From: a virus
Taxonomy: Duplodnaviria; Caudoviricetes
IMG/VR virus record: IMGVR_UViG_3300014208_000027
Coordinates: 139,499-203,498 of that record
Reading direction: 5' to 3' (one strand)
DNA: 64,000 bases
Both the position numbers and the translations under genes were made by a program. Each line of letters begins with the position of its first letter. Position 1 is the stretch's first letter. Below are positions 6,799-61,590 of this stretch, piece by piece. The notes beneath the pieces are model-generated. The model was not told where the DNA came from and ran no database searches. It saw nothing but the letters and a program-made list of their open reading frames with translations.

Positions 6799-6799
6799 C

Positions 6800-6828
6800 T
6801 TTACTTTCTTTCAAAAATAATATATCAT
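6800..6828 (+). promoter_or_regulatory. sigma70-type promoter of the HNH gene
   Basis: TTTACT-17 nt-TATCAT, followed by GTAGGAG SD. Confidence 0.45.
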
Positions 6829-6846
6829 GTAATGTAGGAGACAAAT

Positions 6847-7839
6847 ATGAAGATAGGAATATGCGAAATATGTAAGAAGGAAAAGAAGGTTTGTAGGCGC
6901 AGAAATACTGGCTCGACAACGTGTCACAGGTGTTATCTAGATTTTATTGCACCAAAGAGTTTATGTGAGTGTGGGAGGTTTGAACCTGCTGCAAAGATTG
7001 TAAACGGAAAACCATATTGTAAGAAATGTTTTTATAATAAACTAACTTTGGTATCTGAATGTTATATTTGTCATGAGGAAAAGGAAGTTAGAAAGCAAAA
7101 AAAAACTAATATACTTGTTTGTGAAAAATGTCACAAAGACAATTTTGCTTTAAAACGAATCTGCGCATGTGGAAAAAAAACAATTTCTGCAAAAGTTGTT
7201 GATGGTGAAGGATTTTGTGACACATGCTACAGAAAAAAGTTTTTATCTGAAGAGTGTGATGGGTGTCATGAAATAAAGGTTATAAATTGTAGAAGTGGTG
7301 GTAACTTTTGTAGTAAATGCTGGTTTAACAATATAAAAGAAAAAAAAGAGTGCCATGACTGCGGCGAGATAAGAAGAATATGCAGAGTTACTAATAACGG
7401 TCCAGTGTGTGAGAGGTGTAGCAGAAAATATCTGGAAAAACGGAAATGCACTGAATGCCCTAGAGTTAGACTAATACAAAAAGTATTGGGGGATAAAGAG
7501 TATTGCAGTGTTTGTTATAAAAAATATCGATTGCAAAATGATGAATCTTTTAGAGTTAAAGAAAACTTAAGAGATAGACTTGCGTCGGCGTTTAGAAGAC
7601 TATCTAAAGGTGGGAAGAAGGCCAATGCCAAGGAATATGGTATAGACTATCAAGCCATTTTTGAATATATCGGAGAATGCCCTGGAGATAGAAAAGATTA
7701 CCATATTGATCACATAAAACCTTTGTGTTTATTTGATTTTGATGATCCAGAACAAGTAAGAGATGCATTCCGCCCAGAGAACCATCAGTGGTTAACTAAA
7801 GAAGAAAATATGAAAAAAGGGTCAAAATATAATTCATAA
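6847..7839 (+). CDS. HNH endonuclease with about seven tandem CxxC...CxxC zinc-ribbon modules
   Basis: C-terminal YHIDHIKPLCLFDF...ENHQWLTKEENMKKGSK. Repeated Cys4 modules upstream of it. Confidence 0.8.
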   Translation: MKIGICEICKKEKKVCRRRNTGSTTCHRCYLDFIAPKSLCECGRFEPAAKIVNGKPYCKKCFYNKLTLVSECYICHEEKEVRKQKKTNILVCEKCHKDNFALKRICACGKKTISAKVVDGEGFCDTCYRKKFLSEECDGCHEIKVINCRSGGNFCSKCWFNNIKEKKECHDCGEIRRICRVTNNGPVCERCSRKYLEKRKCTECPRVRLIQKVLGDKEYCSVCYKKYRLQNDESFRVKENLRDRLASAFRRLSKGGKKANAKEYGIDYQAIFEYIGECPGDRKDYHIDHIKPLCLFDFDDPEQVRDAFRPENHQWLTKEENMKKGSKYNS

Positions 7840-9461
7840 TGGCTATTCCATCATTAAAACTAACAAAAGAAGACATAAAAAAAGAAATTATACGATGTGG
7901 CAGAGATCCTGTTTATTTCATCTCAAATTATTGCTATGTCCAACACCCCACAAAGGGAGTTGTCCGATTTAATTTGTATGATTTCCAAAAACAAATTATT
8001 CGAGACGTAAGTGATTATCGATTTAATGTCATACTTAAAGCAAGGCAATTAGGGGTTTCTACGGTTTCAGCTTGTTTCTCCTTATGGATGATGTTGTTTC
8101 ATCGTGGTCAGTCTATATTGATTTGCGCAACAAAAGAAAAAGTTGCTGTCAATGTCGTTAAAAAATGTAAATTAGCATATAAGAGGCTTCCTTCTTGGTT
8201 GAAAGTTTCTGATCTCACAATTGACAATAAAAACTCATTTGAATTAGAAAATTCAAGTTGGATCCGAGGAAGTAGTACTAGTGATGATGTGGGCCGTTCC
8301 GAAGCGTTATCCCTGCTAATAATTGACGAAGCTGCAATTATTAAAAATCTGGAAGATTTATGGCCCGGCTTATATAACACGGTTAGTGAGGGTGGAAAAA
8401 TTTTGATAATGTCAACTCCGCTTGGAGCTAGCGGTTTGTTCTATAAAATTTACACTGACTCTTTAGCGCAAAAAAATGACTTTCACTCATCATTTTATGA
8501 TTGGAGAAGCCACCCAAATCATGACCAGACTTGGTTTGATCACGAAGTAACTAACATGTCGCGCGCTCAAGTAGCTCAAGAATTACTGGGTAATTTCAAT
8601 ATGTCCGGTGAAACTGTATTTGATCCTGAGATGATTGAATGGATGGAAAAAACTCATATTCGTGAACCATTATATCATACTGGGTTTGATCGTAATCTTT
8701 GGGTTTGGGAGGGTTTTAACCCTGAAGAAAAATACTTTATTGCTGCTGACTGTGCCCGAGGTGATGCTACAGATTATTCTGTAGCAGTTGTGTTAAAGAT
8801 TGGGCTGTCTTCTTTGAGTGATAAAATGGAAATTGTGGCCTCTTATCAGGGGAAAACTCCTCCTGATTTATTCTCTAATTTTTTACACAACTTAGGAAAA
8901 GAGTATGGGAATGCTCTTTTAGTGGTTGAGAATAATACTGTTGGATTTGCTGTTGTTAGTAAATTGCAAGAATTGCAGTATCCAAATTTATATTATTCTG
9001 AAAAAGGAACGCATAATTTTGTTGAGTCTTATGAAGCAGAAACTAGTAATTCCGGTTATGTAGCAGGGTTTAGTACTACTTCAAAAACTCGTCCATTGAT
9101 CGTTTCTAAAATGGAAGAAGATTTAAGGAATAAACTTTTAATATTCCACGATGCAAGATTACTAAACGAATGCCGTACTTTTATTTTTGAAAGTGGAAGA
9201 CCGCAATCACAGCGAGGGTATAACGACGATCTAGTAATTGCAACTTGCATTGGCTGCTACGTGAAGGATCTTATTTATGCTACCAATACGGTTGAAATGA
9301 GTTATAAAAAAGCTTTCCTTAGTTCAATTTTTGTTAGCAATACAACTTTAAATACTAAAGTAGCTGGTCAAGCTGGAGCGCCCTTAACGGCTCAATATGA
9401 TCAAAGTTTAAAAGACTACCAAGAGTATAATTGGATATATGTTGATATGTTTAAAAAGTAG
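7839..9461 (+). CDS. terL: terminase large subunit (T4 gp17-like)
   Basis: KARQLGVST Walker A, LLIIDEAA Walker B, STPLG motif III, nuclease motifs AADCARG and NDDLVIA. Confidence 0.95.
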   Translation: MAIPSLKLTKEDIKKEIIRCGRDPVYFISNYCYVQHPTKGVVRFNLYDFQKQIIRDVSDYRFNVILKARQLGVSTVSACFSLWMMLFHRGQSILICATKEKVAVNVVKKCKLAYKRLPSWLKVSDLTIDNKNSFELENSSWIRGSSTSDDVGRSEALSLLIIDEAAIIKNLEDLWPGLYNTVSEGGKILIMSTPLGASGLFYKIYTDSLAQKNDFHSSFYDWRSHPNHDQTWFDHEVTNMSRAQVAQELLGNFNMSGETVFDPEMIEWMEKTHIREPLYHTGFDRNLWVWEGFNPEEKYFIAADCARGDATDYSVAVVLKIGLSSLSDKMEIVASYQGKTPPDLFSNFLHNLGKEYGNALLVVENNTVGFAVVSKLQELQYPNLYYSEKGTHNFVESYEAETSNSGYVAGFSTTSKTRPLIVSKMEEDLRNKLLIFHDARLLNECRTFIFESGRPQSQRGYNDDLVIATCIGCYVKDLIYATNTVEMSYKKAFLSSIFVSNTTLNTKVAGQAGAPLTAQYDQSLKDYQEYNWIYVDMFKK

Positions 9462-9641: not shown

Positions 9642-11957
9642 ATGCCTCCAAAGAATCATAATACTAGAAATCCGTTAGAACAATCTCATGATCTTTTTAA
9701 ACGCTTAACACGTCTTTTTAGTGGTCCACTAGTCTCATACAAAGCACAAGTTGAGAAGTCTCTTAGGCGTAAACAATTAGATAAGTATTCTCGTCAGCTA
9801 AAGACAACAGATGGTCAACATTTTAAGAAGCAACAATTTAATTTATATGATGCCTTGAGATCTGCTGCGTTTATGAATGTCCAAAGGCATCAACGTTATA
9901 ATGATTTTAATGAGATGGATACGGATGCTTATATCAGTTCTTGCCTAGACATATATTCTGATGAAATGTGTACGTACTCTAAGCTTCAACCAATGTTGAC
10001 GATTAACTGTGCAAATGAAGAAATTAAAGAAGTTTTAAAAGTTCTCTATAAAGATGTGCTAAATGTGGAATGTAATTTGCCTGGTTGGTGCAGGTCAATG
10101 TGTAAGTTTGGTGATTTTTTTATGTTTCTTGACATTGACGATTCTCTTGGAATTCAGCGTGGAATTGCATTACCACCTGGAGAAGTAGAGCGACTTGAAG
10201 GAGAAGATAAGTTAAACCCTGATTATGTTCAATTTCAGTTAAATACCGGAGGATTAACTCTTGAAAATTGGCAAGTTGCACATTTTAGAATCTTAGGTGT
10301 AGACAAATATGCCCCATTTGGAGTAAGTGTGTTAGATGGTGGGAGAAGAACCTACAGACAGCTTTGTTATGCTAAGGGAACAAAAGTTTGGCTTCCAAAT
10401 CTTGAAGAAAAAAATATTGAAGATATGAAAATTGGGGATGTTGTATTTTCTTTTGATCGTAGTATAAACCAAATAATTGAAACAAAAGTAAAAAATGTTG
10501 CATTTATGGGGATACAAAAGGTAATTGAAATAAAAAGCGGGGAGATTACTTTAAAAGTTACTCCAAATCATGGAGTTTATGTTAGAAATAAAGATGATCA
10601 AATTATTTGTAAAATGGCAAAAGACTTAATTTGCTTTGAAGATAAGTTGATTTGTCCTACTGAACTAAATGATTGCGATTGCGGTGATTGGAGTTATTAT
10701 AGTTTCCAACTTGTAGAAGAAGTTGTTGACAATGGAGAATTTGTTGAAACTTATGATCTTGAAGTTGATCATGAATGTCACAACTTCACTGCTGATGGAG
10801 TAATTGCTTCTAACACACTATTAGAAGATTCTATTATAGCTTATCGTATTGTTCGCGCACCTGAAAGAAAAGTTTTTTATCTTGACGTAGGTAATATCCC
10901 GCCACAAGATGTTGAAGTATTTATGCAGAAAGCTATGACGCAAATGAAACGTCACCAAATTGCTGATCCCACTACAGGTAGAGTAGACCTTCGCTATCAA
11001 CCTATGAGTGTTGAGAATGATTATTTTCTTCCTGTGCGCGGTCAAGGTTCTGCTACTAGAATTGAGCCCCTACCAGGTGGTCAATTTGTTGGCGATATTG
11101 ATGATTTGAAATATATTAAAGATAAATTGTTTGCTGCCTTAAAGGTTCCTATTTCTTATATTTCTCGTGGCGAAGGCTCTAGTGAAGATCAAGGTTCTTT
11201 AAGTGTCAAAGATATCCGCTTTGCTCGCACTATTCAACGCCTACAGAAGTCAGTTATTGCAGAGTTAACTAAAATTGGTCTTGTGCATCTTTTTATTCTA
11301 GGTTACCGTAACGAAGATCTGCTATCATTTTCGCTAGCGTTGAATAATCCTTCGAAGATTGCAGAACTTCAAGAACTTGAACATTGGAAAACTAAATTTG
11401 AGGTTGCTGGCGCTGCTACGGAAAACTTCTTTTCTAGGCGTTGGATCGGTGAAAGAATTTTTAATCTTTCTGAAGAAGAGATGCTTCGTAATCAGCGTGA
11501 AATGTATCAAGATCGATGGCTAGATTCACAATTAAATTCTATTTCTGAAGGTACTGAGTCTAGCTCTGGAGGTGGCGGTGGACTTGAGGGCTTATCTAGC
11601 CCCGATAACACACCTGACGCTGGTTTAGAGGGCACTGATGAAACTGGAGAGCCATCAGAACCACCTACTCTTCTAGCCGCTCCTGGTAAGCGTGACGAGC
11701 CTCATTTAACGCCTGGTTCAAAAGGTAAAGTTTATTTTCCTGAAGAGTTTGATAAGCGTGGTATGGGGGCTAGATCTGTTCATATGGATTCTTTAGGTGG
11801 CACTATTTTACCAGGGCTTAAAAAAATGAAATCTCTTGGTAGAGGTATTGCTAATGAATCTTTAACATTGGAAGAAAGTAAACTTCATAACACTAGTTTT
11901 GAAATTAAACAATTATTAGAAAAGTTAGAAAGTAAAACAGACAAGAAGATTATTTAA
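9642..11957 (+). CDS. portal vertex protein (T4 gp20-like) containing an intein
   Basis: WCRSMCKFGDFF, AHFRILG, YRIVRAPERKVFYLDVGNIPP, IEPLPGG and DIRFARTIQRLQ motifs; lies next to terL. Confidence 0.93.
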   Translation: MPPKNHNTRNPLEQSHDLFKRLTRLFSGPLVSYKAQVEKSLRRKQLDKYSRQLKTTDGQHFKKQQFNLYDALRSAAFMNVQRHQRYNDFNEMDTDAYISSCLDIYSDEMCTYSKLQPMLTINCANEEIKEVLKVLYKDVLNVECNLPGWCRSMCKFGDFFMFLDIDDSLGIQRGIALPPGEVERLEGEDKLNPDYVQFQLNTGGLTLENWQVAHFRILGVDKYAPFGVSVLDGGRRTYRQLCYAKGTKVWLPNLEEKNIEDMKIGDVVFSFDRSINQIIETKVKNVAFMGIQKVIEIKSGEITLKVTPNHGVYVRNKDDQIICKMAKDLICFEDKLICPTELNDCDCGDWSYYSFQLVEEVVDNGEFVETYDLEVDHECHNFTADGVIASNTLLEDSIIAYRIVRAPERKVFYLDVGNIPPQDVEVFMQKAMTQMKRHQIADPTTGRVDLRYQPMSVENDYFLPVRGQGSATRIEPLPGGQFVGDIDDLKYIKDKLFAALKVPISYISRGEGSSEDQGSLSVKDIRFARTIQRLQKSVIAELTKIGLVHLFILGYRNEDLLSFSLALNNPSKIAELQELEHWKTKFEVAGAATENFFSRRWIGERIFNLSEEEMLRNQREMYQDRWLDSQLNSISEGTESSSGGGGGLEGLSSPDNTPDAGLEGTDETGEPSEPPTLLAAPGKRDEPHLTPGSKGKVYFPEEFDKRGMGARSVHMDSLGGTILPGLKKMKSLGRGIANESLTLEESKLHNTSFEIKQLLEKLESKTDKKII
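10365..10814 (+). mobile_element. 150-aa mini-intein in the portal
   Basis: CYAKGTKV start, TPNH block B, TYDLEVD...HNFTADGVIASN end, +1 Thr. Removing it restores RQL-TLLED. Confidence 0.92.
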
Positions 11958-43114: not shown

Positions 43115-45772
43115 ATGGCAGAAGTTAATGGCATTATTGATATAGCTGGTAACCAGGTAGCCTCTACTAGTGCTCCTTTAATAAATCTTGCCGGTAGAAA
43201 AACAGCAGAGCAAATCTCAGAAGAAAAAAAGAGTTCTGACATTGACACTAAAGAAGGTTTAAATGTTCAATGCTTTTTAGTTGACAATCTTCTTCAAATT
43301 GCTCAAAGTAAAGCTAAACAGGCTATCAATTCCGGTCTACCTGAATATGATTCTTTTGTTATGCTTGAAGCTCATGGTGGTGGTCCTGGTGATGTAACTC
43401 AAGAGATCTTATCCCGTAAAGGTCTTAAAGAACTTTTTAATCTTTCCTCTGCTCAGAAAGCATTACTTGTTCCTAAGATTGAAATATATAAGATTACCTA
43501 TAACAACACTGAAGGTGTTAACGGTACTGACGTTAAATTAGTTTTTGCTGATAGTATGCGCAATTCTGAAATTGAAAGTTTGATAAGCGGTAAAAAAGGT
43601 AGGGGCGATGATGTAGGATTAAAGAGTTTCTCTTATGCTTTTGATGCTACTCAACCAGCAGAAAGTGGTATTATTAAAACCACCTTGACTTTATTATTTC
43701 AAAATGCTTCAGGATTCACAGAGTCTAGACCTAATGGCATAACTTTTAGCGATCTTATATGGGATAAAAACTCAGTCTCTAAGACAGGAATAGTTTTTAA
43801 TCCTTTAGCTTTCAGAATGAAAATTGTATCAGGTTGGGCAGTCCCGTCAGATCCGGGTGGTGTATTATTTTCTAAAGACTTATTGAAAGCTATTGAGAAT
43901 ACTAAGACTATTTTATTTGTTACCCATGTAAAACATGACTTAGAATTTAATGAAGATGGTACGCTTCGAGTCACTATAGAATTTTGTGGTGCCATTGATA
44001 TTGCGCTAGGCGATACAATAAAATCTAACTTATTCCAAACTAATAGTTATCTACAGAAGAGGCTTGATAAAGAACGCCTTAAAGAAAAAGAAAAACAAGA
44101 GGCTATTACGAAGCAGTCACAGGCTTCAGGACAAGCCGCAGTTGATAGTGCCATCGCAGGCTCAAAGGTAGATGAGAAAGGCTCTATTGCTATCCTAGAG
44201 GCTATAGATAAGCAAGAGAAGTACTCTCGCATTATCAAAGAACTGTACGACTCAAGCAGTATGTATTATATTGATATTGATGCTAGCATGCTACAAGTTC
44301 TTGATGATGAAAAGAAAAACTATACTGCTGAGAAAATTAAAGAGAAAAGAGGTACAGATAAAGTAGATGACAAAGAAATAGAAAATGTAGCTATTCAAGA
44401 AAGAATGAATGGTCGGAGAGTTTCTTCTAAGTTAGAAATTAATAGAGTAGATTCTGATGAAGGCAAAAAGAGACTAGAGAAGAAAAAAGAAATCTTGAAA
44501 GCTGGTATGAAAGAAGCTTTAGATGTGAGTAGACAATATGGATTAAAGTTCACAACAAGTCTAAGCACGGAAAAAGATTTTTGGGACGAAACTGTTACTA
44601 CTAAAAAAAATACCGAGGAAGAGAAAAACAAAATCATTGCTACGGCTATTAAATCTGCTAGTACTTCTGAACTTTTAACGTCTGGTAAAGTTAGAGCATA
44701 CTTTTTTTACCTTGGCGATCTTCTCGATAGTATCTTTAGAAAATTTGTTTATAAGCGTGCTGATCTTGACAATATGAGAATTATGTTAGGTACGCTTGTT
44801 TATACTGATCCTAGGACTAAAAAGCAAGAAGAAGTTAATATAGCCGATATTCCTATATCTTTAGAACGATTTATTACATGGTACACTAAAAAAGTTATCT
44901 CTACTCAACCAGTTACATATTTAGTTAGACAATTTATTAGAGATGTGTTAGAACAAATTGTTATTGGTGCTTTAGGTGAGTACTGTTTTGGCAACCTTAG
45001 TCAGAATCTTCCTAACATTGTATTCAATATTTTTTCTGTTCCTGCTACAAGTGGTGAACCATTAGCACATCTTAAGAACGGTAAACGATATTCGTTTAAA
45101 GGTGGTTTATCTAAGCCAGGTGACGATTCTATAAAGAAAAGTGACGCTTCAGATTCTACAAAGGTACAACATTTTCTTTATATTTATGCTAACAATTATA
45201 ACATTACAAACGCTAACGGTGATTTAAATGAGGATGCTTCTAGAGGCGTGTATCACTTAGCTCCAGGATTAGATAGAGGTCTGGTTAAGAATGTTAAATT
45301 TGTTAAGAATGCTGTACAGTTTATGGCTGAAGCACAATTAACTTCAGAAAATAAAAAGACTAGATTGTCTCCTAATGTTTATAATGCTACTGTTCGCATG
45401 CTTGGGAATAATTTGTTTATGAATGGAAACTATATTTATATTGATACTGCTCGTATGAATCTTGGCTCTCCATTTAAAAAAGAGTTTGGCAAATTACAAC
45501 CAAATATGTTATCCTTTGAATATCACTTAGGCGGTTATTATATGGTAACAAAAGTTTCTTTTGACTTTACTGAATCAGATTACGAAACAGTTTTAACTGC
45601 TAGATGGGTAGGCGCTTTGCCAGAAGAGAATGATTTATTTAACATGGCTAATAATGGATTAGGTACGGTTAAATTTGCATCTCAACAGTCTGTTATGAAG
45701 GATAAAAGTTTATTCTACGGTGACGAACTCCCCAACTTGAAAGATTTTAAAGGTCAATCAAAGGCGAAATAA
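43115..45772 (+). CDS. baseplate hub protein (gp27/gpD-like)
   Basis: C-terminal YNATVRMLGN.LF..GNYIYID and GGYYMVTKV; synteny. Confidence 0.7.
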   Translation: MAEVNGIIDIAGNQVASTSAPLINLAGRKTAEQISEEKKSSDIDTKEGLNVQCFLVDNLLQIAQSKAKQAINSGLPEYDSFVMLEAHGGGPGDVTQEILSRKGLKELFNLSSAQKALLVPKIEIYKITYNNTEGVNGTDVKLVFADSMRNSEIESLISGKKGRGDDVGLKSFSYAFDATQPAESGIIKTTLTLLFQNASGFTESRPNGITFSDLIWDKNSVSKTGIVFNPLAFRMKIVSGWAVPSDPGGVLFSKDLLKAIENTKTILFVTHVKHDLEFNEDGTLRVTIEFCGAIDIALGDTIKSNLFQTNSYLQKRLDKERLKEKEKQEAITKQSQASGQAAVDSAIAGSKVDEKGSIAILEAIDKQEKYSRIIKELYDSSSMYYIDIDASMLQVLDDEKKNYTAEKIKEKRGTDKVDDKEIENVAIQERMNGRRVSSKLEINRVDSDEGKKRLEKKKEILKAGMKEALDVSRQYGLKFTTSLSTEKDFWDETVTTKKNTEEEKNKIIATAIKSASTSELLTSGKVRAYFFYLGDLLDSIFRKFVYKRADLDNMRIMLGTLVYTDPRTKKQEEVNIADIPISLERFITWYTKKVISTQPVTYLVRQFIRDVLEQIVIGALGEYCFGNLSQNLPNIVFNIFSVPATSGEPLAHLKNGKRYSFKGGLSKPGDDSIKKSDASDSTKVQHFLYIYANNYNITNANGDLNEDASRGVYHLAPGLDRGLVKNVKFVKNAVQFMAEAQLTSENKKTRLSPNVYNATVRMLGNNLFMNGNYIYIDTARMNLGSPFKKEFGKLQPNMLSFEYHLGGYYMVTKVSFDFTESDYETVLTARWVGALPEENDLFNMANNGLGTVKFASQQSVMKDKSLFYGDELPNLKDFKGQSKAK

Positions 45773-46911
45773 TGTCTCTTAAAAATCTCTACCTTGCCAA
45801 CAATGCCATGAGTGCCTTGGAAATGTATGAGTATCGTAAGTTGTATCACGATTCTGTTATGGCGCTAGGTAATGAAAAAAAACTTGATCTATGGTATGAT
45901 GCACCTCACTATGGGAAGGTTAATCTTCGAGGGCAACCTATTTTTCTTTCTGAATCAAACTTAAAACAACTTGACTCCGAAGGTAGCGATACTCTAATGG
46001 CTTTAGATTTTGTTGCAGATGCTTTTGATGATCTCCAGCATTATTTTCAGAAGGCTTTGTCAACGAATAGAATTAAGTCTACAGGTATTCTTTCTAACAT
46101 TAAAGCTAAGTCAGCTTGGGTAAATGTTTCTAAACTTCACCATATTCATATGGATAGTCTTTATAAATCTTATACATTTTCATATCTTAGAGATATTGGT
46201 GAAAACAAAGTAAAAACCTTTGATGATTTCTTGGTAAATTTTCTAAACTTCATAGAGTTTTCATCAGCAATTCTACCTGTTACAAGAACTTCTTTTATTC
46301 GCTCTAGTTTTTGCACTCCAATGATCACTGGTTTAATGATTGAAATTTCTGATGAGGATAGAAGTGATGATTATTTAAAGCAAACTCATGTTCTTGAAGA
46401 TGAAAATTATTTATTCTACGTGAACGCCTTGAAGCGGTTTGGTTTCTTTATTGACAAGAATGTTCCTTCTAGGCTTGTAGCAGATGTTATGTCTAAGAGC
46501 ATGATCAAGTATATGCAAACCTATGGAATGACAAGTGAGAAACTATTTTCTTCCTACTTCTACAGGTCACTAGATTATGATATTGAAATTTTGATGAATT
46601 ACTTAGTACAGATGTGGAATAGCTATGCTACGATGAACTCTCTAGTAAAAGAAATAAAAGAAGATTGTACCGGTAGAAAGCTGTTGTCAAAAATCTCACA
46701 TCGTGAAAAAGTAGACTTACAATCGCTTCATGAACAGTATGACTTCTCATTCTGGGTAGGTTATTATTTTCAACTGAGGCTAAAGGAAGAAAATATATTT
46801 TTAGATCGCGACGACCTGGAAAGAAAGTTGGAAACTCTTAAAAGAATTGTAGAAAAAACAGATGGAAAGATTGTTTACCAATTCATAGAGAATGAAATAA
46901 ACAACATCTAG
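45772..46911 (+). CDS. conserved hypothetical protein (baseplate region)
   Basis: 379-aa ORF coupled to the hub gene. Confidence 0.65.
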   Translation: MSLKNLYLANNAMSALEMYEYRKLYHDSVMALGNEKKLDLWYDAPHYGKVNLRGQPIFLSESNLKQLDSEGSDTLMALDFVADAFDDLQHYFQKALSTNRIKSTGILSNIKAKSAWVNVSKLHHIHMDSLYKSYTFSYLRDIGENKVKTFDDFLVNFLNFIEFSSAILPVTRTSFIRSSFCTPMITGLMIEISDEDRSDDYLKQTHVLEDENYLFYVNALKRFGFFIDKNVPSRLVADVMSKSMIKYMQTYGMTSEKLFSSYFYRSLDYDIEILMNYLVQMWNSYATMNSLVKEIKEDCTGRKLLSKISHREKVDLQSLHEQYDFSFWVGYYFQLRLKEENIFLDRDDLERKLETLKRIVEKTDGKIVYQFIENEINNI

Positions 46912-46914
46912 TAC

Positions 46915-46942
46915 TTGACATCCCTGTAAAATCTGCTAAAAT
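46915..46942 (+). promoter_or_regulatory. sigma70-type promoter
   Basis: TTGACA-16-TAAAAT with TG extension. Confidence 0.8.
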
Positions 46943-46948
46943 TTTAAT

Positions 46949-47971
46949 GTGGTTACCTGGGCATATCATCCTTCGCTAGATTCTTTTGACGTTCAATACG
47001 CCAAATTATATTGTCTTGGTAAGCCTATTAAAGATGTATGTCCTAAGCGGTTACTTTCTCAGTGGCTTGCCTCTAAACAAAAAATAAAAGCATACAGTGT
47101 TTCTATCAGTGAGTCAAGAGTTTCTAAAGATATTTTATTATCTTCTTTAATTCCTAAACATGTCCTAGAGAATCATCTTAACTTAAAAAGTCTTATTTGT
47201 GAGCACGTATTAAAAACTTATCCCAAGCCAGAAAATTATGATTTTTTACTCCAAGCAACCAAACTTCTTTATGCTATTTCTACCAAAAAGGTTAATTTCG
47301 GCAATAATAGTGACCGTTACTGCAAGTATAATCTTTTTGGATCTAAGACTGGAAGGCTTACAACATTAAAAGATTCCTTTCCCATTCTAACTTTAAAACG
47401 CGAAGATCGTGTTCATATTAAACCTAACAATGATCTATTCATTGTGATGGATTACAATTCTGCTGAGCTGAGAACTTTGAATTGTTTGCTAGGCAAAGAA
47501 AATAATGTTGACGATCTTCATACCTGGAATGTTGAAAATCTCTATGACAATTCTACAACACGTGACCAAGCTAAGAAAGAATTTTTTGCATGGCTTTATA
47601 ATCCAGAATGCGTTAATGAACGGTTAGAAAGTCACTATAATAGGCAGAAATTATTGGAGAAGTATTTTGACGGGGAACAAATAAAAAACCCCTTTCAACG
47701 CGCTATAAAGTGTGACAATTACCATGCTTTAAACTATTTAATACAGTCAACTTTGACGGATCTGTTCTTGAGACAAGCCACTAAAATCTTTGAGAAATTA
47801 CAGAATAGTAAAAGTTATATTTCTATGCTAATACATGATAGTATAGTGATAGATTCGTGTAGGCAAGAAAAAAATATTTTGATGGAATGTGTTGACGCTT
47901 TTCAAGACACATGCTATGGTAAGTTTAAGGCTAGTGTAAAAGTCGGAAACAATTTAGGAGAGTTAAAATGA
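46949..47971 (+). CDS. minimal family A DNA polymerase-like protein
   Basis: TGRL; motif A MDYNSAELR; motif B RDQAKK.FF..LY; ALNYLIQST; motif C IHDS. No exonuclease domain. Confidence 0.75.
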   Translation: MVTWAYHPSLDSFDVQYAKLYCLGKPIKDVCPKRLLSQWLASKQKIKAYSVSISESRVSKDILLSSLIPKHVLENHLNLKSLICEHVLKTYPKPENYDFLLQATKLLYAISTKKVNFGNNSDRYCKYNLFGSKTGRLTTLKDSFPILTLKREDRVHIKPNNDLFIVMDYNSAELRTLNCLLGKENNVDDLHTWNVENLYDNSTTRDQAKKEFFAWLYNPECVNERLESHYNRQKLLEKYFDGEQIKNPFQRAIKCDNYHALNYLIQSTLTDLFLRQATKIFEKLQNSKSYISMLIHDSIVIDSCRQEKNILMECVDAFQDTCYGKFKASVKVGNNLGELK

Positions 47972-49948: not shown

Positions 49949-50752
49949 ATGGCTTTAAATTTAGAAAAGATTCAAGAACGTCTTAATCGTCTTAACTCTA
50001 AGGGAAGGAATAATAATTCTTTTTGGAAGGTTCCTGAAGGCGAAAGTGTAATTCGTATTCCACCTATGCCTGATGGTGATCCATTTGTCGAGCATCATTT
50101 ACATTATAATGTTGGTAAGGCTGTAGGGTTTGTTTGTCTTAGACGAGAATATAATAAACCTTGCCCTGTGTGTGCACTTGTGAATAAACTTTATAAGTCT
50201 GATAATGCTGAAGATGTTGTATTAGCAAAGAAGTTAACTGCTAAGGCAAGATTTTATTCTCCTGTTCTAGTACGAGGGGAAGAAGAGAAGGGTGTTAGGT
50301 GGTGGAGTTATGCTAAGACTCCTTATGCTAAGCTGCTTAAATGGGCTAGCAATCAAGAAGAGTATGGAGATATCACGGATTCTAAACATGGTACTGATAT
50401 TGAATTAGTTAACAAGAAGCCACCAGGTGGTGAGTTTTTTGTTACTGATATCGAGTTAAAGCGTAAGGAAAGTGATTTCTGCAAGGGTATGGAAGAAGGG
50501 AAGTGCAAGGAATTATTAGAAAATATTCCTGAACTTATGATTGATAAAAAGACTGCTGAAGAAATACAAGTTCTACTTGACGAGTGGCTACTAGGAGACG
50601 AAGAAGAAACTGTTGAAAGTGCTGAGGAAGGTGGTGAAGTAGAGAAATTTGGTGTAGGTAAAGAAAAGAAATCTTCTCCTGCTAAGGCTGATAAAGAAAT
50701 GAGCGAAATTGACAAGAAGTTTGCCGAGCTAACTACTGAGGATGATGAATAA
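49949..50752 (+). CDS. single-stranded DNA-binding protein (T4 gp32-like)
   Basis: FWK...VIRIPP; zinc site H..C...CPVC; GDITD...GTDI; acidic C-terminal tail. Confidence 0.88.
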   Translation: MALNLEKIQERLNRLNSKGRNNNSFWKVPEGESVIRIPPMPDGDPFVEHHLHYNVGKAVGFVCLRREYNKPCPVCALVNKLYKSDNAEDVVLAKKLTAKARFYSPVLVRGEEEKGVRWWSYAKTPYAKLLKWASNQEEYGDITDSKHGTDIELVNKKPPGGEFFVTDIELKRKESDFCKGMEEGKCKELLENIPELMIDKKTAEEIQVLLDEWLLGDEEETVESAEEGGEVEKFGVGKEKKSSPAKADKEMSEIDKKFAELTTEDDE

Positions 50753-51081
50753 TGGCGCCGCCTAAGAAAGAAAAAGAAGGCGAGGAGAAGAAAAAGAATA
50801 AGTTTAAACTTGATGGGCTTTCGACTGATATGTCTAACGCTGAAAGAATGGAAACACTTAGAAATATCTTAAATAAGAGTGCTGGAAGCAAGGTGGCTTA
50901 TAATTTAGAAGAAGAAAATCCTACCAAGGTAAAGCAATGGATTTCTACAGGAAGCTATCTTTTAGATAGAATTATTTGCAAGGGGATGGTGGGCGGAATT
51001 CCAATGGGGAAGATAGTGGAAATGTCTGGGTTAGAAGCGTGTGTTACAGAGGATACAGAGGTTGACATAGAAGTAGAATAA
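50752..51081 (+). CDS. recA: RecA/UvsX N-terminal fragment fused to a 13-aa split-intein N-part
   Basis: WISTGSYLLD..GGIPMGKIVEMSGLEA, then CVTEDTEVDIEVE* (51040-51078). Confidence 0.92.
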   Translation: MAPPKKEKEGEEKKKNKFKLDGLSTDMSNAERMETLRNILNKSAGSKVAYNLEEENPTKVKQWISTGSYLLDRIICKGMVGGIPMGKIVEMSGLEACVTEDTEVDIEVE

Positions 51082-51087
51082 GGGTGG

Positions 51088-51129
51088 TCTCCTACTAATT
51101 AGTATAAGTTACTCTGTGATAGTAGGAGA
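51088..51129 (+). promoter_or_regulatory. SD-sequestering hairpin overlapping a putative late promoter
   Basis: TCTCCTACTA (51088-97) pairs with TAGTAGGAGA (51120-29); CTAATTAG at 51095-51102. Confidence 0.75.
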
Positions 51130-51136
51130 TTTATCA

Positions 51137-52261
51137 ATGACATTCGTTAGTTCTATCTCGGAAGAGACACTAAAACAAATTGCGGACCTTATTGTGGATG
51201 GCTATGGAAACAAGTATATTTTTGAACAATTTAATTTTGCGTTTTCTCACAAAGTGATTTATAGAGCTGCAAAAAAATTTGGTGTCTATGAACGATTAAA
51301 AGAAAATAACAAAAAAACGAAATCTTTTGCTATTAAGGATCGAGTAAAGAATTCTGCTTACGAAAGATATGTTGAGTTTGATGCGAAATACGGTGAAGAC
51401 GTTAAAAGAATGATAAATGACGGATTTCATATGAGCAAAATCTTAGTAGAGCTTGATCTTTGGCAGTCTTTTTTTACGAAATATTTAAAATGGAAAGATG
51501 CCGATGGGGGTTTGAAAAATCAGTTGTCAATCAACTCTGAGAGAGTTATTCGCGAAAATGGGTTGCGTAACATACAGTGGATAAAAGAAAATGTCGTTCC
51601 TTGGAATAAGAAAACAATTACTAACGACATTGCTCTTTACTACAAAGAACTGGTTGAGAATGGGCTGTATAGAGCACAAATCACTCGGTCTATGAAAAAA
51701 ATATATGATATTGGGCCAAAAAAAGTTGCTGAGATTATAAAAACATATGGGAAACCAAACGTTAAGTGTGATGGCAAAGGGAAAAATAATCCAGCTTATG
51801 GAAAGACATACATAAAAGGCGGAAGAGGAATTGTTGGTTTTATTTTGGCGAGCGGGAAGAAAATTTACTTCAGAAGTTCATTAGAGATGAAAATATATTT
51901 TTATTTACTTGAAAATGATGTTGCGTTTTCGCTTTCAAAACATTCAATAGAATATGAATTTGATGGGGCGAAGCGGACATATAACCCAGACATCGTAATT
52001 AGTGATGTGATTTATGAAATTAAACCCAGAAAATTGGTTTCTTTAAGAATCAATGTAGAGAAATTTAATGCACTAAAAAAATATTGTGAAAAGTTTAGCT
52101 TAAAATGCGATCATATTTTTGAGGATACATTTAACTGTAGTTTTATTGATTTAGATTATGTAGAACAAAAAATAAAGGACGGAATTTTGCTTTTAGACCA
52201 AAAACAAGAAGAGAGATTGAAGAGGATTATGAAATATGAGAGTAAAAATATCAAAAATTAA
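51137..52261 (+). CDS. free-standing PD-(D/E)XK (TnsA-N-like) homing endonuclease with NUMOD3 motif
   Basis: GKNNPAYGK NUMOD3; FRSSLE..RTYNPDI...IYEIKP nuclease motif; ATG behind AGGAG. Confidence 0.8.
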   Translation: MTFVSSISEETLKQIADLIVDGYGNKYIFEQFNFAFSHKVIYRAAKKFGVYERLKENNKKTKSFAIKDRVKNSAYERYVEFDAKYGEDVKRMINDGFHMSKILVELDLWQSFFTKYLKWKDADGGLKNQLSINSERVIRENGLRNIQWIKENVVPWNKKTITNDIALYYKELVENGLYRAQITRSMKKIYDIGPKKVAEIIKTYGKPNVKCDGKGKNNPAYGKTYIKGGRGIVGFILASGKKIYFRSSLEMKIYFYLLENDVAFSLSKHSIEYEFDGAKRTYNPDIVISDVIYEIKPRKLVSLRINVEKFNALKKYCEKFSLKCDHIFEDTFNCSFIDLDYVEQKIKDGILLLDQKQEERLKRIMKYESKNIKN

Positions 52262-53450
52262 AGAATTGTTGTCTTCTGGAAAGAAAGTTAGAATCAAGAG
52301 TGTGGATGGGAGATTTGTAAGCGTTGGAAAATACATAGAAAAAGGAATCAAGGATACATACTGTGTTTTATTGCAGAACGGACTCTCCATTAAGGTATCG
52401 AATCATCATAAATTTTTTTCTAACTCAGGTTGGTTAGAAACTAGACATTTAATTCCAGGAGAAACTAAACTCTTGTGTGATGATGGAAATTATTATGTCG
52501 TTAAGAATGTTTTATATGTCGGTAAACACAAGATAGTTGATGTTACTGTTGATGATATGGACCATTGCTATTTTGGGAATGGAATTTTAAATCATAACTC
52601 TGGCAAGTCTTACATTGCCATGCAAATTGCTTCTAATGCTTTAAAAGAAGATGTTGATGTCGTTTATTTTGATACAGAAGCAGCAGTAGATCCAGATTTC
52701 ACGAAAAAAATTCTAGATAAAAACGGGTTCACGCTTAATGACTTTCTTTATGTGATGCCCGACTCTCTTGAACTTGTGTTAGAAAGTATTGAAAATATTC
52801 TTGCAAATTCCACTAAATCAACTTTATTCATTCTTGACTCACTTGCAAATTGCCCGACTAGAAACAGTCTTGAACAAGAGTTCACTCCTGGTGCATCTAT
52901 TGGCGAAGTTGCTAGGATGTTGTCAATTGCCTTTAAAAAATTGACCGTTCCTTTATCCAACCATGAGTCAACGTTTTTAATAATTAACCAGTTGAAAACA
53001 AATATTAAACCTGCTAATCCTGGAGAAATTTATACAGATCCTTTTGTTACTCCGGGAGGTAAAGCTTTACTTTACATGGCTTCTTTAAGAATTTGGTTAA
53101 CGCTTGAGAAAGGAAAGAAACACTTTGTTTATGATGATGTAACTGGAGAGCGTATGGGATCTGAAATTGTCTGTATGATTAAGAAATCTCGTTTCGGGAC
53201 TATGGGAAGAGAGGTAGAAACTAAATTCCTTTGGTCTGGAGAAGACCTTTGTTTCCAAGAAGATGAGGCTATGCTTGAGATTATCAAGAAGTCGGATGCT
53301 GTCAATCAGGCTGGTGCTTGGACTACTATGAAGTATGAGGATGGAAGCGAGGAAAAGTTCCAAGGTGCTTCATATCTTGAAAGAATGAAGTCTGACCCTA
53401 AGTTTAAATCCCGTGTGCTTCAACTTGTAGATTCTGTTCTCCTTCGCTAG
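52236..53450 (+). CDS. recA: split-intein C-part (121 aa) fused to the RecA/UvsX C-terminal fragment
   Basis: Intein part ends IVDVTVDD..HCYFGNGILNHN (52598), then SGKSY, YFDTE, ILDSLA, IINQLK, TPGGKAL. Confidence 0.93.
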   Translation: MRVKISKIKELLSSGKKVRIKSVDGRFVSVGKYIEKGIKDTYCVLLQNGLSIKVSNHHKFFSNSGWLETRHLIPGETKLLCDDGNYYVVKNVLYVGKHKIVDVTVDDMDHCYFGNGILNHNSGKSYIAMQIASNALKEDVDVVYFDTEAAVDPDFTKKILDKNGFTLNDFLYVMPDSLELVLESIENILANSTKSTLFILDSLANCPTRNSLEQEFTPGASIGEVARMLSIAFKKLTVPLSNHESTFLIINQLKTNIKPANPGEIYTDPFVTPGGKALLYMASLRIWLTLEKGKKHFVYDDVTGERMGSEIVCMIKKSRFGTMGREVETKFLWSGEDLCFQEDEAMLEIIKKSDAVNQAGAWTTMKYEDGSEEKFQGASYLERMKSDPKFKSRVLQLVDSVLLR

Positions 53451-53481
53451 TCATTTTCTTTTTTTCTTTCTATTTAAATTT

Positions 53482-54084
53482 ATGTCACCAACCGATAAAG
53501 TTGAACCCATTAACTTAGATAACGCTATTTCTTCTAACCTTGAAAATGTTTCTATGACTGCTCAAGAATTGCGTAAGGATGCTGAGCATTTCAGTTCTAA
53601 GCAGGAGATTACGCCCGAGCAACGAAAAGATATTTTACTTGCCACGGCTTGTGGATTAGCTGCTGATTATCAAGTTGACAAGGCGCTTTCTACTCTTCAA
53701 CAATATCAAACCTCTAGTATAAAAGAACAAGAAGTTGTTGATGATTATAAAAACTCAAGACCTCGTGACACTTCTTTTGATCGACCTGTATATTCTCATG
53801 AAGAAGAAAATACTTTAGATGTTGATATTAGTGATCGGTTAGAAAAGATTAAAACATTTTATCAGAGAGCAATGTATGCCGCTGTTATGACTCGTAAACA
53901 AGGTAAAGTAACGCCTGAACAAGAGAAAATGTTGCGCTTGTTTTATGCTATTGGTTACATGGTAGAAAAAAAGATTCCTGAAGCTGAGAAGACTTTGAAA
54001 GAATTGTCCACTATGCAAGAAAGTTATACGCTTAATGAGTCTAAGCAATTACTTAGAATGCGCCAGTTGGCCTTCAAGAAATAA
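53482..54084 (+). CDS. probable late/virion protein
   Basis: CTATTTAA at 53470. C-terminal LNESKQLLRMRQLA resembles the scaffold C-terminus RMRVLAG. Confidence 0.55.
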   Translation: MSPTDKVEPINLDNAISSNLENVSMTAQELRKDAEHFSSKQEITPEQRKDILLATACGLAADYQVDKALSTLQQYQTSSIKEQEVVDDYKNSRPRDTSFDRPVYSHEEENTLDVDISDRLEKIKTFYQRAMYAAVMTRKQGKVTPEQEKMLRLFYAIGYMVEKKIPEAEKTLKELSTMQESYTLNESKQLLRMRQLAFKK

Positions 54085-58209: not shown

Positions 58210-61200
58210 ATGGCTACTCGTGATGAAGTCTTCCAAGAGACATTAAAGTATTTTGATGGTGATGAACTTGCTGCAAATGTGTTTTTTAAGTATTGTCTAA
58301 AAGACAAACAAGGGATTTATCACGAGTTAACCCCTGACGACATGCACAAGCGACTAGCTAGTGAGTTTGCAAGGATAGAAAAGAAGTTTGAAGGTGAAGG
58401 TGAAGTAAGCGAGAAAGAAATTTATGATTTGTTGAAGGACTTCAAATATATAGTCCCGCAAGGTTCGCCAATGATGGGCATAAAAAATAACTTCTCTATC
58501 GTTTCTTTGTCGAATTGTGTAGTAATTGCGCAACCTAATGACAGTATGTCTGGGATTTTTGATACGGCTAAAGATGCTGCCAATCTTTTTAAATCTCGTT
58601 GCGGAGTCGGAATAGATCTTTCCACGCTTAGGCCAGATGGAATGACAGTAAATAACTCTTCTGGGACTTCCACTGGAGCTTGGAGTTGGTCAAATTTTTT
58701 TAGTGAAGTTACCCGCATGGTGGGACAGAATAATAGGCGCGGCGCCTTGATGATTACTATGGATGTTCGGCATCCTGACATTGAAAAATTTGTGGTCATG
58801 AAGCATGATCTAACTAAAGTCACTGGGGCTAATATCTCTGTAAAAATCTCTGATGATTTTATGAAGGCTGTAGAGGAAGACAATAATTTTTTGTTAAAGT
58901 TTCCTGTTGATTCGGATAAACCAAAATTTTCTAGATACATCAAAGCTAAGAATTTATGGGATTCTATTGTAGATTCGGCAAGAACTACAGCAGAGCCGGG
59001 AATTATATTCTGGGATACTGCAACAAAGTTTTTGCCTGCCAATGAATATCCAAACTTCAAGGCAGTAAGCACAAACCCTTGCAGCCCTCGTGATACAAAA
59101 GTATTAACCCCTATGGGTATTAGGGTCTTTGATGAAATCGATGTCGGAAGTGAAATTTGGGATGGAAATAAATTTGTTGTCGTGACCGATAAGCAGTGTA
59201 CGGGCATTAAAGAGGTTTTTGAATATCATACAAACGCTGGGATTTTTGTGGGAACAGAAAATCACAGAATTGTGCAAGAAGGTAAAAAATTTGAAGTGAA
59301 AGATGCCGATTCAATTGATATTTGCAGAGGAAGTTTTGAAAAGCTAGAATTGTTTGACCCGCAGACTATTGTAGATGGTTTAGTGATGGGCGACGGGAGT
59401 GCTTATAAATCGTCAAAAGGGCTTTACATTGGGAAAGATGATGGAGATTATTTTAACAGTGAAATATCTAATTTTATTCTAGAATATAGACCGAAAATTA
59501 ATAAAGATTTCTGGGAAATTGATACCACTATTTCCGTCGATGAATTACCGAGGACATACGAAAGAAAAATTCCAGAAAGATTCTTGAAAGGGAGCCGAAA
59601 AACAGTTTGTTCTTTTCTCCGAGGCTTATATTCTGCCAACGGTTCTATTTGTGGCAATAGAATAACATTAAAGGCGTCTAGCAAGCAAATCATTTTAGAC
59701 GTTCAGATTATGCTTTCTTCTGTGGGTATTCTGTCGTATTATACCACTAACAAACCAAGTTTGGTTGAATTTAGAAACGGAGAATACGAGTGCAAACAAA
59801 GCTATGATCTCAATATTTCTGTTGACAGAAAGAAGTTTTACGATTGCATCGGGTTTATTCAAAAGTATAAACAGAAGCGATTGTTGGAAACTTGTGAAAT
59901 AACAACTAATCGTACTAAGATTTCTTACGAAATTAAAGAAATAATTCGCAGAGGTGAAGAAAAAGTTTATGACATTACAGTGGATAGCCCCGAACATGTT
60001 TATTGGACTGGTGGGCTTTTAGTTTCCAACTGTTCTGAAATTATTCTAAGTGAAAATGATGCTTGTAGACTTATTTCTATTAATCTAAAGAATTTTGTTA
60101 AGAATCCATTCAGTGAACTTTGTTGCTTTGATTTTAAACAATTCTCTAATGTGGTTCGTATAGCTGCTAGGATGTCAGATGATCTTGTAGAGTTGGAAAT
60201 AGAACGTATAGAATCCATTATTTCTTTTGCTGACGAAGAAGATGTAAAAGTTCTATGGCGAAAAATGCTCGAAAGTGCAATTCAAGGTCGAAGGTGTGGT
60301 CTTGGAACTCATGGTTTGGCAGATGTTTTTTCTGGCATGTGCTGTCGGTATGATAGCGAAGAAGCGTTAAAGCTGACAGATAATATCTATAGAGTTTTAA
60401 GAGATGTAACATATGAAACAAGTTCAGAACTAGCTCTTGAACGTGGTTCATTCCCTTGCTTTGATTGGAATTTAGAAAAAAACAATGCTTTCATTAAGAA
60501 TCTTCCTGAATATTTGCAAGAAAAAATTAAATTACAAGGTAGAAGGAATATTTCTTTGCTCACTAATGCCCCAACCGGCAGCGTATCCATCTTGTCTAGA
60601 ACAAGTTCCGGTATTGAGCCTATATTTAGGCATTCATATACGCGAAGAAAGAAGATCAATGGCCCTAGTGGAGAAACTAAGGTTGATTTTACAGATCAAA
60701 ATGGTGATGCCTGGGAAGAGTTTAAAGTATTCCACAAAAATATTGAAGATTATATGAAATTAAATGGTTTAGTTAATTCTGATAATTTGCCAGATTTTTT
60801 TGTTTCTAGTGAAAATATAAATTGGAAAAATCGAGTGAAGTTACAGGGGATTATTCAAAAATATATTGATCATTCAATTTCCAGTACAATTAATCTTCCA
60901 AAAGGAACATCTGTTAGTGTTGTAGACGAACTTTACAGAACCGCTTGGAAACTTGGTCTTAAAGGGATTACTGTCTATGTTGATGAATCAAGAACAGGTG
61001 TATTAGTTACAAAAAAAGAGGATTGTATTAAAGAAAGTTTTTGTCCTAAGCGACCTATTGAACTTGAGTGTGATATCCACCAAATTAGTGTTAAAGGGCA
61101 ACCGTGGGTAGTGTTTGTTGGTTTAATGAAGGATTTAATGGGAAATAATTCTCCTTATGAAATATTTGCAGGAGAATCAAATAAAATAAAAATCCCGAAA

Positions 61201-61590
61201 AAATATCTCAAAGGAATGGTTATCAAGAAAGGTAAAAAAGAAGAAAAATCAATTTATAACTTGAGAATTGGTAAGGGAGATGAAGAACTTTTAATTTCTG
61301 ACATTGTTGACACTTTTGATAATGATGCCCATGCTGCGTTAACCAGAATGACTTCTCTTAGTCTTAGACACGGTGTGCCTGTAAAATTCCTTAGCGAACA
61401 ACTCTCTAAGGATAAGACCTCTGATATGTTCTGTTTTTCTCAAGCAGTCGCTAGAGTTTTAAAAAAATATATTGCAGATGGGCAAAAACCTTCGTCCGAT
61501 AAACTTTGTAAGTCTTGTGGGAAGAACTCTTTAGTGTATCAGGGAGGGTGTGTTGTTTGTGTGGATTGCGGTTGGAGTAAGTGTTCTTAG
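58210..61590 (+). CDS. nrdJ: class II (B12-dependent) ribonucleotide reductase with intein and C-terminal TSCPD/Zn-ribbon
   Basis: SLSNC, GVGIDLS, RRGALM, TNP/CSE, GLGTHG, APTGSVS, SSGIEP, HSISST; C-terminal CxxC..CxxC. No small subunit in the window. Confidence 0.9.
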   Translation: MATRDEVFQETLKYFDGDELAANVFFKYCLKDKQGIYHELTPDDMHKRLASEFARIEKKFEGEGEVSEKEIYDLLKDFKYIVPQGSPMMGIKNNFSIVSLSNCVVIAQPNDSMSGIFDTAKDAANLFKSRCGVGIDLSTLRPDGMTVNNSSGTSTGAWSWSNFFSEVTRMVGQNNRRGALMITMDVRHPDIEKFVVMKHDLTKVTGANISVKISDDFMKAVEEDNNFLLKFPVDSDKPKFSRYIKAKNLWDSIVDSARTTAEPGIIFWDTATKFLPANEYPNFKAVSTNPCSPRDTKVLTPMGIRVFDEIDVGSEIWDGNKFVVVTDKQCTGIKEVFEYHTNAGIFVGTENHRIVQEGKKFEVKDADSIDICRGSFEKLELFDPQTIVDGLVMGDGSAYKSSKGLYIGKDDGDYFNSEISNFILEYRPKINKDFWEIDTTISVDELPRTYERKIPERFLKGSRKTVCSFLRGLYSANGSICGNRITLKASSKQIILDVQIMLSSVGILSYYTTNKPSLVEFRNGEYECKQSYDLNISVDRKKFYDCIGFIQKYKQKRLLETCEITTNRTKISYEIKEIIRRGEEKVYDITVDSPEHVYWTGGLLVSNCSEIILSENDACRLISINLKNFVKNPFSELCCFDFKQFSNVVRIAARMSDDLVELEIERIESIISFADEEDVKVLWRKMLESAIQGRRCGLGTHGLADVFSGMCCRYDSEEALKLTDNIYRVLRDVTYETSSELALERGSFPCFDWNLEKNNAFIKNLPEYLQEKIKLQGRRNISLLTNAPTGSVSILSRTSSGIEPIFRHSYTRRKKINGPSGETKVDFTDQNGDAWEEFKVFHKNIEDYMKLNGLVNSDNLPDFFVSSENINWKNRVKLQGIIQKYIDHSISSTINLPKGTSVSVVDELYRTAWKLGLKGITVYVDESRTGVLVTKKEDCIKESFCPKRPIELECDIHQISVKGQPWVVFVGLMKDLMGNNSPYEIFAGESNKIKIPKKYLKGMVIKKGKKEEKSIYNLRIGKGDEELLISDIVDTFDNDAHAALTRMTSLSLRHGVPVKFLSEQLSKDKTSDMFCFSQAVARVLKKYIADGQKPSSDKLCKSCGKNSLVYQGGCVVCVDCGWSKCS
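59080..60030 (+). mobile_element. 317-aa LAGLIDADG intein at the RNR catalytic Cys
   Basis: CSPRDTKV start; TENH; DGLVMGDG and LRGLYSANG blocks; VYDITV..YWTGGLLVSN end; +1 Cys. Confidence 0.93.

Follow-up and report, generated by a model that had tools for sequence, protein, structure and literature searches.

The recA/uvsX gene in a 64,000-nucleotide stretch of groundwater virus DNA (the final 64 kb of a 203,498-bp IMG/VR virus record, called the window as a whole) is broken exactly at its P-loop, and we consider it likely, with a probability of about 85%, that this fractured recA is repaired by protein trans-splicing of a VidaL-type, S1-split class 1 intein and that the split was made by a TnsA-like homing endonuclease. 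The source of the DNA is a T4-like jumbo phage. The locus comprises three open reading frames (ORFs), all on the + strand, arranged head to tail and lying in three different frames. ORF1 (50752-51081, 109 amino acids, aa) contains the 96-aa N-terminus of RecA, the N-extein (50752-51039, 96 codons), and the N-piece of the intein (IntN; 51040-51081, 13 codons plus TAA), and ends with ...MSGLEA, then CVTEDTEVDIEVE, then TAA, with a second in-frame stop (TAG) 7 codons past this one. ORF2 (51137-52261) encodes a predicted PD-(D/E)XK nuclease of 374 aa. ORF3 (52236-53450, 404 aa) begins with MRVKISKIKELL and contains the 121-aa C-piece of the intein (IntC; 52236-52598, 121 codons) and 283 aa of RecA, the C-extein (52599-53450, 283 codons plus stop); its residues 116-126 read ...GILNHN|SGKSY, with the +1 Ser of the Walker A motif SGKS as the first residue of the C-extein. 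The ATG at 51137 is the preferred start of ORF2, with the Shine-Dalgarno (SD) sequence AGGAGA at a spacing of 7 nt; the SD sequence of IntC, GAGGA, lies 9 nt upstream of the ORF3 start, and the 3' end of ORF2 overlaps the ATG of ORF3 by 26 nt. A preliminary description of this DNA had already given these ORF boundaries, the two intein lengths and the overlap, and all of them were recovered unchanged.

That both outer ORFs belong to one recombinase followed from profile matches. The Pfam RecA model matched ORF1 with profile positions 10-63 (22.7 bits) and ORF3 with positions 62-254 (79 bits, 4.6e-22), and the UvsX-like PHROG 97 also matched the exteins. As the profile continues over the break, a single RecA domain has been cut at one point, which agrees with the earlier claim of a cut inside the P-loop. 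The joined exteins give a 379-aa protein with the RecA core, Walker A, Walker B and the catalytic Glu of the RecA/UvsX family. Only this joining restores the Walker A loop GLEASGKS, as had been proposed. Comparison with an intein-free recA allele, also suggested in the preliminary description, was possible with the contig L045, whose uninterrupted 377-aa protein P0002 shares 81% identity with the joined exteins and has SGLNSVGKSY in place of their SGLEASGKSY. L045 is collinear with the window on both flanks (45-358 with 50699-51021 and 380-1478 with 52602-53711), and downstream this collinearity goes on through the 5'-3' exonuclease and DnaB genes, so that the intein-free relative lacks exactly the insert of ~1.56 kb (window ~51021-52602). 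Contiguous mini-inteins of 133-139 aa were found at the same site in P0011 (= L003), P0012, P0015 and L013/L014. No close relative was detected by tblastn against cultured-phage records, where the best match had 27% identity and PA5oct-like Pseudomonas phages matched via IntC with 25%.

All residues expected for a class 1 intein are present in the two pieces, namely C1 in the block A motif CVTEDT, S55-N-H-H58 in block B, D102 in block F and H120-N121 in block G, followed by Ser+1. The block B SNHH, terminal HN and +1 Ser described earlier for IntC are thus in place, and H58, D102, H120 and N121 are invariant in 13/13 split alleles, in which the +1 residue is always Ser or Thr; Cys1 is conserved in all IntN examined, and the intein-free allele has Val at +1. 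Invariant catalytic residues together with Ser or Thr at +1, in the place of Val when the intein is missing, fit splicing chemistry rather than a dead gene or a mere non-covalent assembly. When ORF3 was compared with the PDB by phmmer, NpuDnaB (6.8e-6) and VidaL (1.5e-4) were found. An AlphaFold2 (AF2) model of the contiguous homologue P0012 (mean predicted local distance difference test, pLDDT, 86) adopted the HINT fold and matched at least 50 intein structures with a probability of 1.00, the closest being 6VGV (template-modelling score 0.77, root-mean-square deviation, rmsd, 1.7 A, 22% identity). In this model the start of IntC corresponds to a helix at residues 22-30. The split, with the stop after residue 13, lies just before helix alpha1 and after beta2, which is the S1 site.

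6VGV and 6VGW are structures of VidaL, an 'ultra-short' naturally split intein according to those passages of PMC13014065 and PMC11185735 that cite Burton et al. 2020. The host site of VidaL was read from the flanks of its PDB construct: 6VGV starts with ESG, continues with a 16-aa IntN and ends with ...SH(A)SGK, giving the native flanks ESG| and |SGK. VidaL aligned end to end with the contiguous UvsX intein of locus L020 (E = 1.7e-41), the N-extein of which matches a solved phage UvsX. It also aligned with the window IntC from residue 2 through the +3 extein residue, and residues 1-13 of its IntN aligned with the window IntN. The VidaL junction (...RLTKKG | MIEEKKVTVQEL...) corresponds to the window junction (...IEVE stop | MRVKISKIKEL...), and both VidaL and PolB16 have been described as split 'immediately following beta-strand 2 (S1)' (PMC13014065). 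From these alignments, the shared insertion site and the shared split position we assign the intein, on sequence grounds, to the VidaL type, as an S1-split class 1 intein of the P-loop. The core of the preliminary description, namely that recA is fractured, that its intein is split atypically and that an endonuclease gene lies in between, therefore stands, now with a VidaL homologue at the same insertion and split site as well as contiguous and intein-free alleles.

L020 belongs to a sister clade of UvsX P-loop inteins in IMG/VR (L015-L036) that includes VidaL and in which a basic IntN (e.g. 15 aa, net ~+6) is combined with an acidic start of IntC; IntN of 15, 29 and 32 aa occur there. In the window the signs are exchanged. 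IntN is acidic (net charge -6 in the window, -4 to -6 in most loci of its clade), the first 25 residues of IntC are basic (+6 in the window, +5 to +7 in most loci), and this charge complementarity is kept across the clade. An IntN of 13 aa was found in the window, L001, L004-6, L008-10 and L011-12, and one of 14 aa in L002, L007 and L050-53. An exhaustive profile search gave 31 cluster representatives at E <= 1e-30, of which ~22 begin with IntC inside their first 15 residues; split alleles are thus frequent in metagenomes, and an IntN of 13 aa characterises the clade. Natural IntN lengths of 15-37 aa, with the 'record-short' 15 aa of PolB16 OarG and 16 aa of VidaL, are given in PMC13014065 (also PMC10189870), the same range as in the preliminary description. 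Its proposal that the 13-aa IntN is among the shortest natural ones fits these values, but the short IntN is clade-wide (13-14 aa in 12 split loci) and not peculiar to this phage. With its 13 aa, the window IntN, for which splicing is predicted, falls two residues below the shortest natural IntN to have been characterised (15 aa). As an artificially split M86 intein with an 11-aa IntN splices (PMC13014065), 13 aa are biochemically plausible.

Several observations weigh against the proposed trans-splicing. The Hint and intein models of Pfam did not reach their gathering scores in their matches to ORF3 residues 6-121 (PT-HINT 26.3 vs a cut-off of 27.7, Intein_splicing 22.2 vs 35.8). The IntN segment of the P0012 model is of low confidence (pLDDT 56-61, no strands), and only 4 alignment rows cover it; the IntN hairpin is not resolved in the model, so that the seating of the 13 residues is not revealed. 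A length of 13 aa is below that of any natural IntN shown to splice, and the split recA locus was found in no RNA run. Complex prediction with ORF3 residues 1-135 and ORF1 residues 70-109 gave an interface score (ipSAE) of 0.60 compared to 0.02 for the best control, with at least 73% of contacts agreeing between runs and a partner pLDDT of at least 46. The mark for this method was reached by 51/78 solved complexes and 2/108 mismatches, with scores up to 0.60 at its weak and unreliable end. The value is rated as 'weak support' only, may reflect memory of solved inteins, and was not used as proof.

Among other explanations, the one that survives best, though with a small probability, is that the RecA fragments assemble non-covalently via the intein pieces and work without formation of a peptide bond. 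Passages of PMC3045599 provide a precedent for an endonuclease-fractured gene in phage Aeh1, where the fragmented NrdA assembles non-covalently after invasion by a homing endonuclease, and the charge complementarity of IntN and IntC alone would support such an association. However, mere association would not need the residues of the splicing chemistry, which are all present and conserved, and ATP binding can hardly be expected of a Walker A loop whose two sides are kept apart by a domain of 134 residues.

Hardly more can be said for an inactivated recA, in which the nuclease cassette broke a gene that was no longer needed and the pieces are decaying; we regard this as improbable, marginally more so than non-covalent assembly. 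Only one recA-like locus exists across the 203-kb record, a back-up copy being neither shown nor excluded, and the lack of the locus in RNA runs would also be compatible with decay. Against it, the window exteins differ from the intein-free allele with pN 0.124 and pS 0.712 (pS being saturated), and relative to this allele both exteins are under strong purifying selection. dN/dS is unusable for most locus pairs because their synonymous sites are saturated; for the split alleles L008 and L009, IntC showed 14 synonymous differences and 1 non-synonymous difference (omega 0.015), and the C-extein 48 synonymous and 0 non-synonymous ones. Moreover, none of the frames is disrupted, good SD sequences are present, and the split layout persists in many diverged lineages, some of them without the nuclease gene.

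If a group I intron or a comparable element removed the 1.5-kb insert from the RNA, one mRNA for RecA would result, and there are precedents, as group I introns with endonuclease ORFs are known in recA of Bacillus and phage 0305phi8-36 (PMC2677866, PMC3239194). We consider this very improbable. An Rfam scan of 50000-54000 detected no intron or ribozyme and nothing at E <= 1 except a chance snoRNA match, the boundaries match intein blocks that continue the reading frames of the exteins, other alleles carry contiguous inteins at this site, the three ORFs lie in three frames, and in L053 the gap is only ~107 nt. Finally, an assembly or sequencing error at 51079 in a really contiguous intein, which the preliminary description had raised and which a metagenome assembly with a depth of ~10x might suggest, can practically be dismissed and the stop taken as real: a second, independent groundwater study provided contigs that agree in every position with window 50701-51081 (stop included) and 52096-52611 (ORF2/ORF3 overlap included), IntN and IntC are separated by 1154 nt with a separate conserved gene, and the stop ending IntN recurs at the same position in 11 other loci. 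As it occurs there as TAA, TAG or TGA, stop-codon recoding is no explanation either.

The gene between the two halves (51137-52261, +) is a predicted free-standing homing-endonuclease gene. The AF2 model of ORF2 (pLDDT 83) shows three N-terminal helical modules, for which no match was found, followed by an alpha/beta core (residues 234-347, pLDDT 81-95). The PD-(D/E)XK signature E...(P)D...(D/E)xK on this core consists of E250, D285, E294 and K296 (RSSLE...PDIV...EIKP), none of which varies among 9 homologues, and nuclease activity is predicted. Pfam gave weak matches below cut-off to Phage_endo_I and TnsA_N, and PHROG 15427 'endonuclease' matched with 1.6e-10. When the model was compared with the PDB by Foldseek, nothing was found at E <= 0.001; the best match was TnsA (E = 4.9e-3, 129 columns, rmsd 3.1 A) and the next the catalytic domain of I-Bth0305I (probability 0.98). 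The concordance of these weak matches suggests a TnsA/endonuclease-I-like PD-(D/E)XK domain. Of the NUMOD3/PD-(D/E)XK nuclease of 374 aa in the preliminary description, the PD-(D/E)XK assignment and the length hold, while NUMOD3 scored only 9.7 bits (E = 1.1) compared to a cut-off of 20.4 and has to be dropped; no GIY-YIG match was found in ORF2.

In 7 other loci a homologue of ORF2 lies at the corresponding place; the homologues so placed in L007, L008/9, L011/12 and L050-52 have 25-50% identity, and a word-index search with the nuclease found only 3 other clusters. In L004/5 the nuclease is reduced to its C-terminal 138-150 aa, in L002 a gap of 1140 nt contains no long ORF, and in L001 (gap 212 nt) and L053 the gene is gone, but recA is still split in all of these. 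Between IntN and the nuclease gene an RNA hairpin (51083-51135, +; minimum free energy -18.3 kcal/mol, z = -2.1) is predicted, in which the 3' arm pairs with the SD sequence of ORF2 (TCTCCTACTA / TAGTAGGAGA). L008 and L009 have comparable hairpins, which differ from each other by a compensatory change. A promoter and terminator scan gave sites no more numerous than in shuffled sequences, and no promoter is claimed inside the cassette. In the nearest split allele, P0003 (JGI 3300069644; intein 66% identical), a GIY-YIG/NUMOD3 gene lies directly downstream of recA, so that, counting the ORF that precedes IntC, this recA is flanked or interrupted by two endonuclease genes.

In the intein tree the window clade and the VidaL clade separate with full support, and within each of them split and contiguous alleles are interspersed. 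The split L011 is sister to the contiguous L013 (99% support), and the window together with P0003 is sister to the contiguous L003. This interspersion indicates that splitting, or re-fusion, occurred several times. As a separate observation, P0125 (755 aa) begins with an IntC of this clade and has three separate Hint-profile stretches, so that it is possibly a split recA C-part with further inteins.

For trans-splicing of the fractured recA, the following course can be proposed. A class 1 mini-intein would be inserted between GLEA and SGKS of the Walker A loop, and a free-standing PD-(D/E)XK homing-endonuclease cassette would have invaded its coding sequence at the S1 position, the loop following beta-strand 2, providing IntN with the stop behind residue 13 and IntC with its start ATG. 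Of the resulting two polypeptides, RecA(1-96)-IntN13 and IntC121-RecA(97-379), the acidic IntN (-6) may dock as a beta-hairpin on the basic N-terminal region of IntC (+6) and thereby complete the HINT fold. Cys1, His58, Asp102, His120, Asn121 and Ser+1 would then perform protein trans-splicing, and the recombinase so formed would have 379 aa and the P-loop GLEASGKS. The nuclease would be a selfish passenger, the translation of which is probably kept low by the hairpin hiding its SD sequence.

If this is true, one more core enzyme of replication and recombination depends on protein trans-splicing. The allele series documents the life cycle of gene fracturing, from intein-free and contiguous alleles to split ones with a nuclease, with a decayed nuclease and without one. 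The clade would also be a source of natural 13-14-aa IntN peptides, 1-2 residues under the published minimum of 15 aa, and its charge pattern, opposite to that of VidaL, makes it a candidate for orthogonal use in semisynthetic labelling. Neither the phage biology nor the engineering aspect alters in kind what is known, and the 13-aa natural IntN, the charge-reversed interface and the nuclease family would take the literature only slightly further. A wider reading joins these points and is offered tentatively, its chances being somewhat below even. The acidic 13-aa IntN would be the shortest natural one, fully competent in fast trans-splicing also as a synthetic peptide, and, due to the opposite interface charge, orthogonal to VidaL as a second ultra-short tool. 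A dedicated TnsA-like homing-endonuclease family would repeatedly invade the S1 loop, so that the endonuclease target site and not folding constraints would dictate 'atypical' split sites.

Other features of the window and of related loci were noted besides. The start ATG of the recA N-part overlaps the stop of an upstream gene for a gp32-like single-stranded DNA-binding protein (SSB) in the sequence TAATG (50750-50754), suggesting translational coupling of SSB and recombinase. A second intein of the same phage resides in the T4-like portal gp20 (9642-11957, +; Pfam 1.5e-65), as a contiguous mini-intein at ~residues 241-391 with an Intein_splicing score of 29.7 bits, below cut-off. The large subunit of ribonucleotide reductase (58210-61590, +; 1126 aa) has a LAGLIDADG_3 match at residues 466-514, probably reflecting a full-size homing intein, and would be the third intein-bearing gene in the window. 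At 43115-47971 (+) three consecutive ORFs (885, 379 and 340 aa) were found, only the last of which matches DNA_pol_A, with profile positions 278-357 only; possibly this polymerase is divergent or its coding sequence is divided, and the region upstream of gp32 in L053 is arranged similarly. In L001 (~6594-8260) and L002 (~7189-8855), ~4 kb downstream of the split recA, another P-loop protein is encoded with a large LAGLIDADG intein, ending with ...THN or ...HHN and followed by [STC]GK[ST].

Compared to known systems, VidaL is most similar, sharing the Walker A site of RecA/UvsX, the S1 split after beta2 and class 1 chemistry with Cys1 and Ser+1. It differs in its IntN of 16 instead of 13 aa, as the window IntN is without the three-residue tail after beta2, and in the charges, since VidaL and its clade have a basic (K/R-rich) IntN and an acidic (E/D-rich) start of IntC where the window is reversed (-6/+6). 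VidaL is moreover a characterised fast trans-splicing intein, whereas splicing in the window is predicted from the sequence. PolB16 OarG (PMC10189870) is likewise split at S1, and its natural IntN is short enough to be supplied as a synthetic peptide, but it is cysteine-less, resides in a DNA polymerase and has an IntN of 15 aa, unlike the presumably Cys-dependent 13-aa system described here. AceL-TerL and GOS-TerL also have short natural IntN, but of 25-37 aa and with the split at S2. With TnsA of Tn7 (PDB 1T0F/1F1Z) and the catalytic domain of I-Bth0305I (PDB 3R3P), ORF2 shares the PD-(D/E)XK core E...PD...ExK, all matches being weak.

The arrangement of the locus as a whole is that of the 'fractured gene' with hairpin, spacer and overlap described by Dassa, London, Stoddard, Schueler-Furman and Pietrokovski 2009 (PMC2677866), who proposed that the invading cassette provides the upstream stop and the downstream start; the preliminary description was thus right that fractured genes with split inteins and intervening endonucleases are a known type. 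There, however, the inteins are split at the canonical position (IntN ~100 aa), the endonucleases are GIY-YIG or Vsr-like (I-Bth0305I), while that of the window is TnsA/endonuclease-I-like with I-Bth0305I as second-best match, both weak, and recA/uvsX is not among the hosts, UvsX being only a neighbouring gene. The spacer to the ATG has 55 nt in the window compared to 27-51 there. Nevertheless, both share the one-strand order of N-extein with IntN, short spacer, free-standing endonuclease gene and IntC with C-extein, a hairpin upstream of the endonuclease start, an overlap (26 nt in the window, 6-69 bp there) and alleles from which the endonuclease has been lost.

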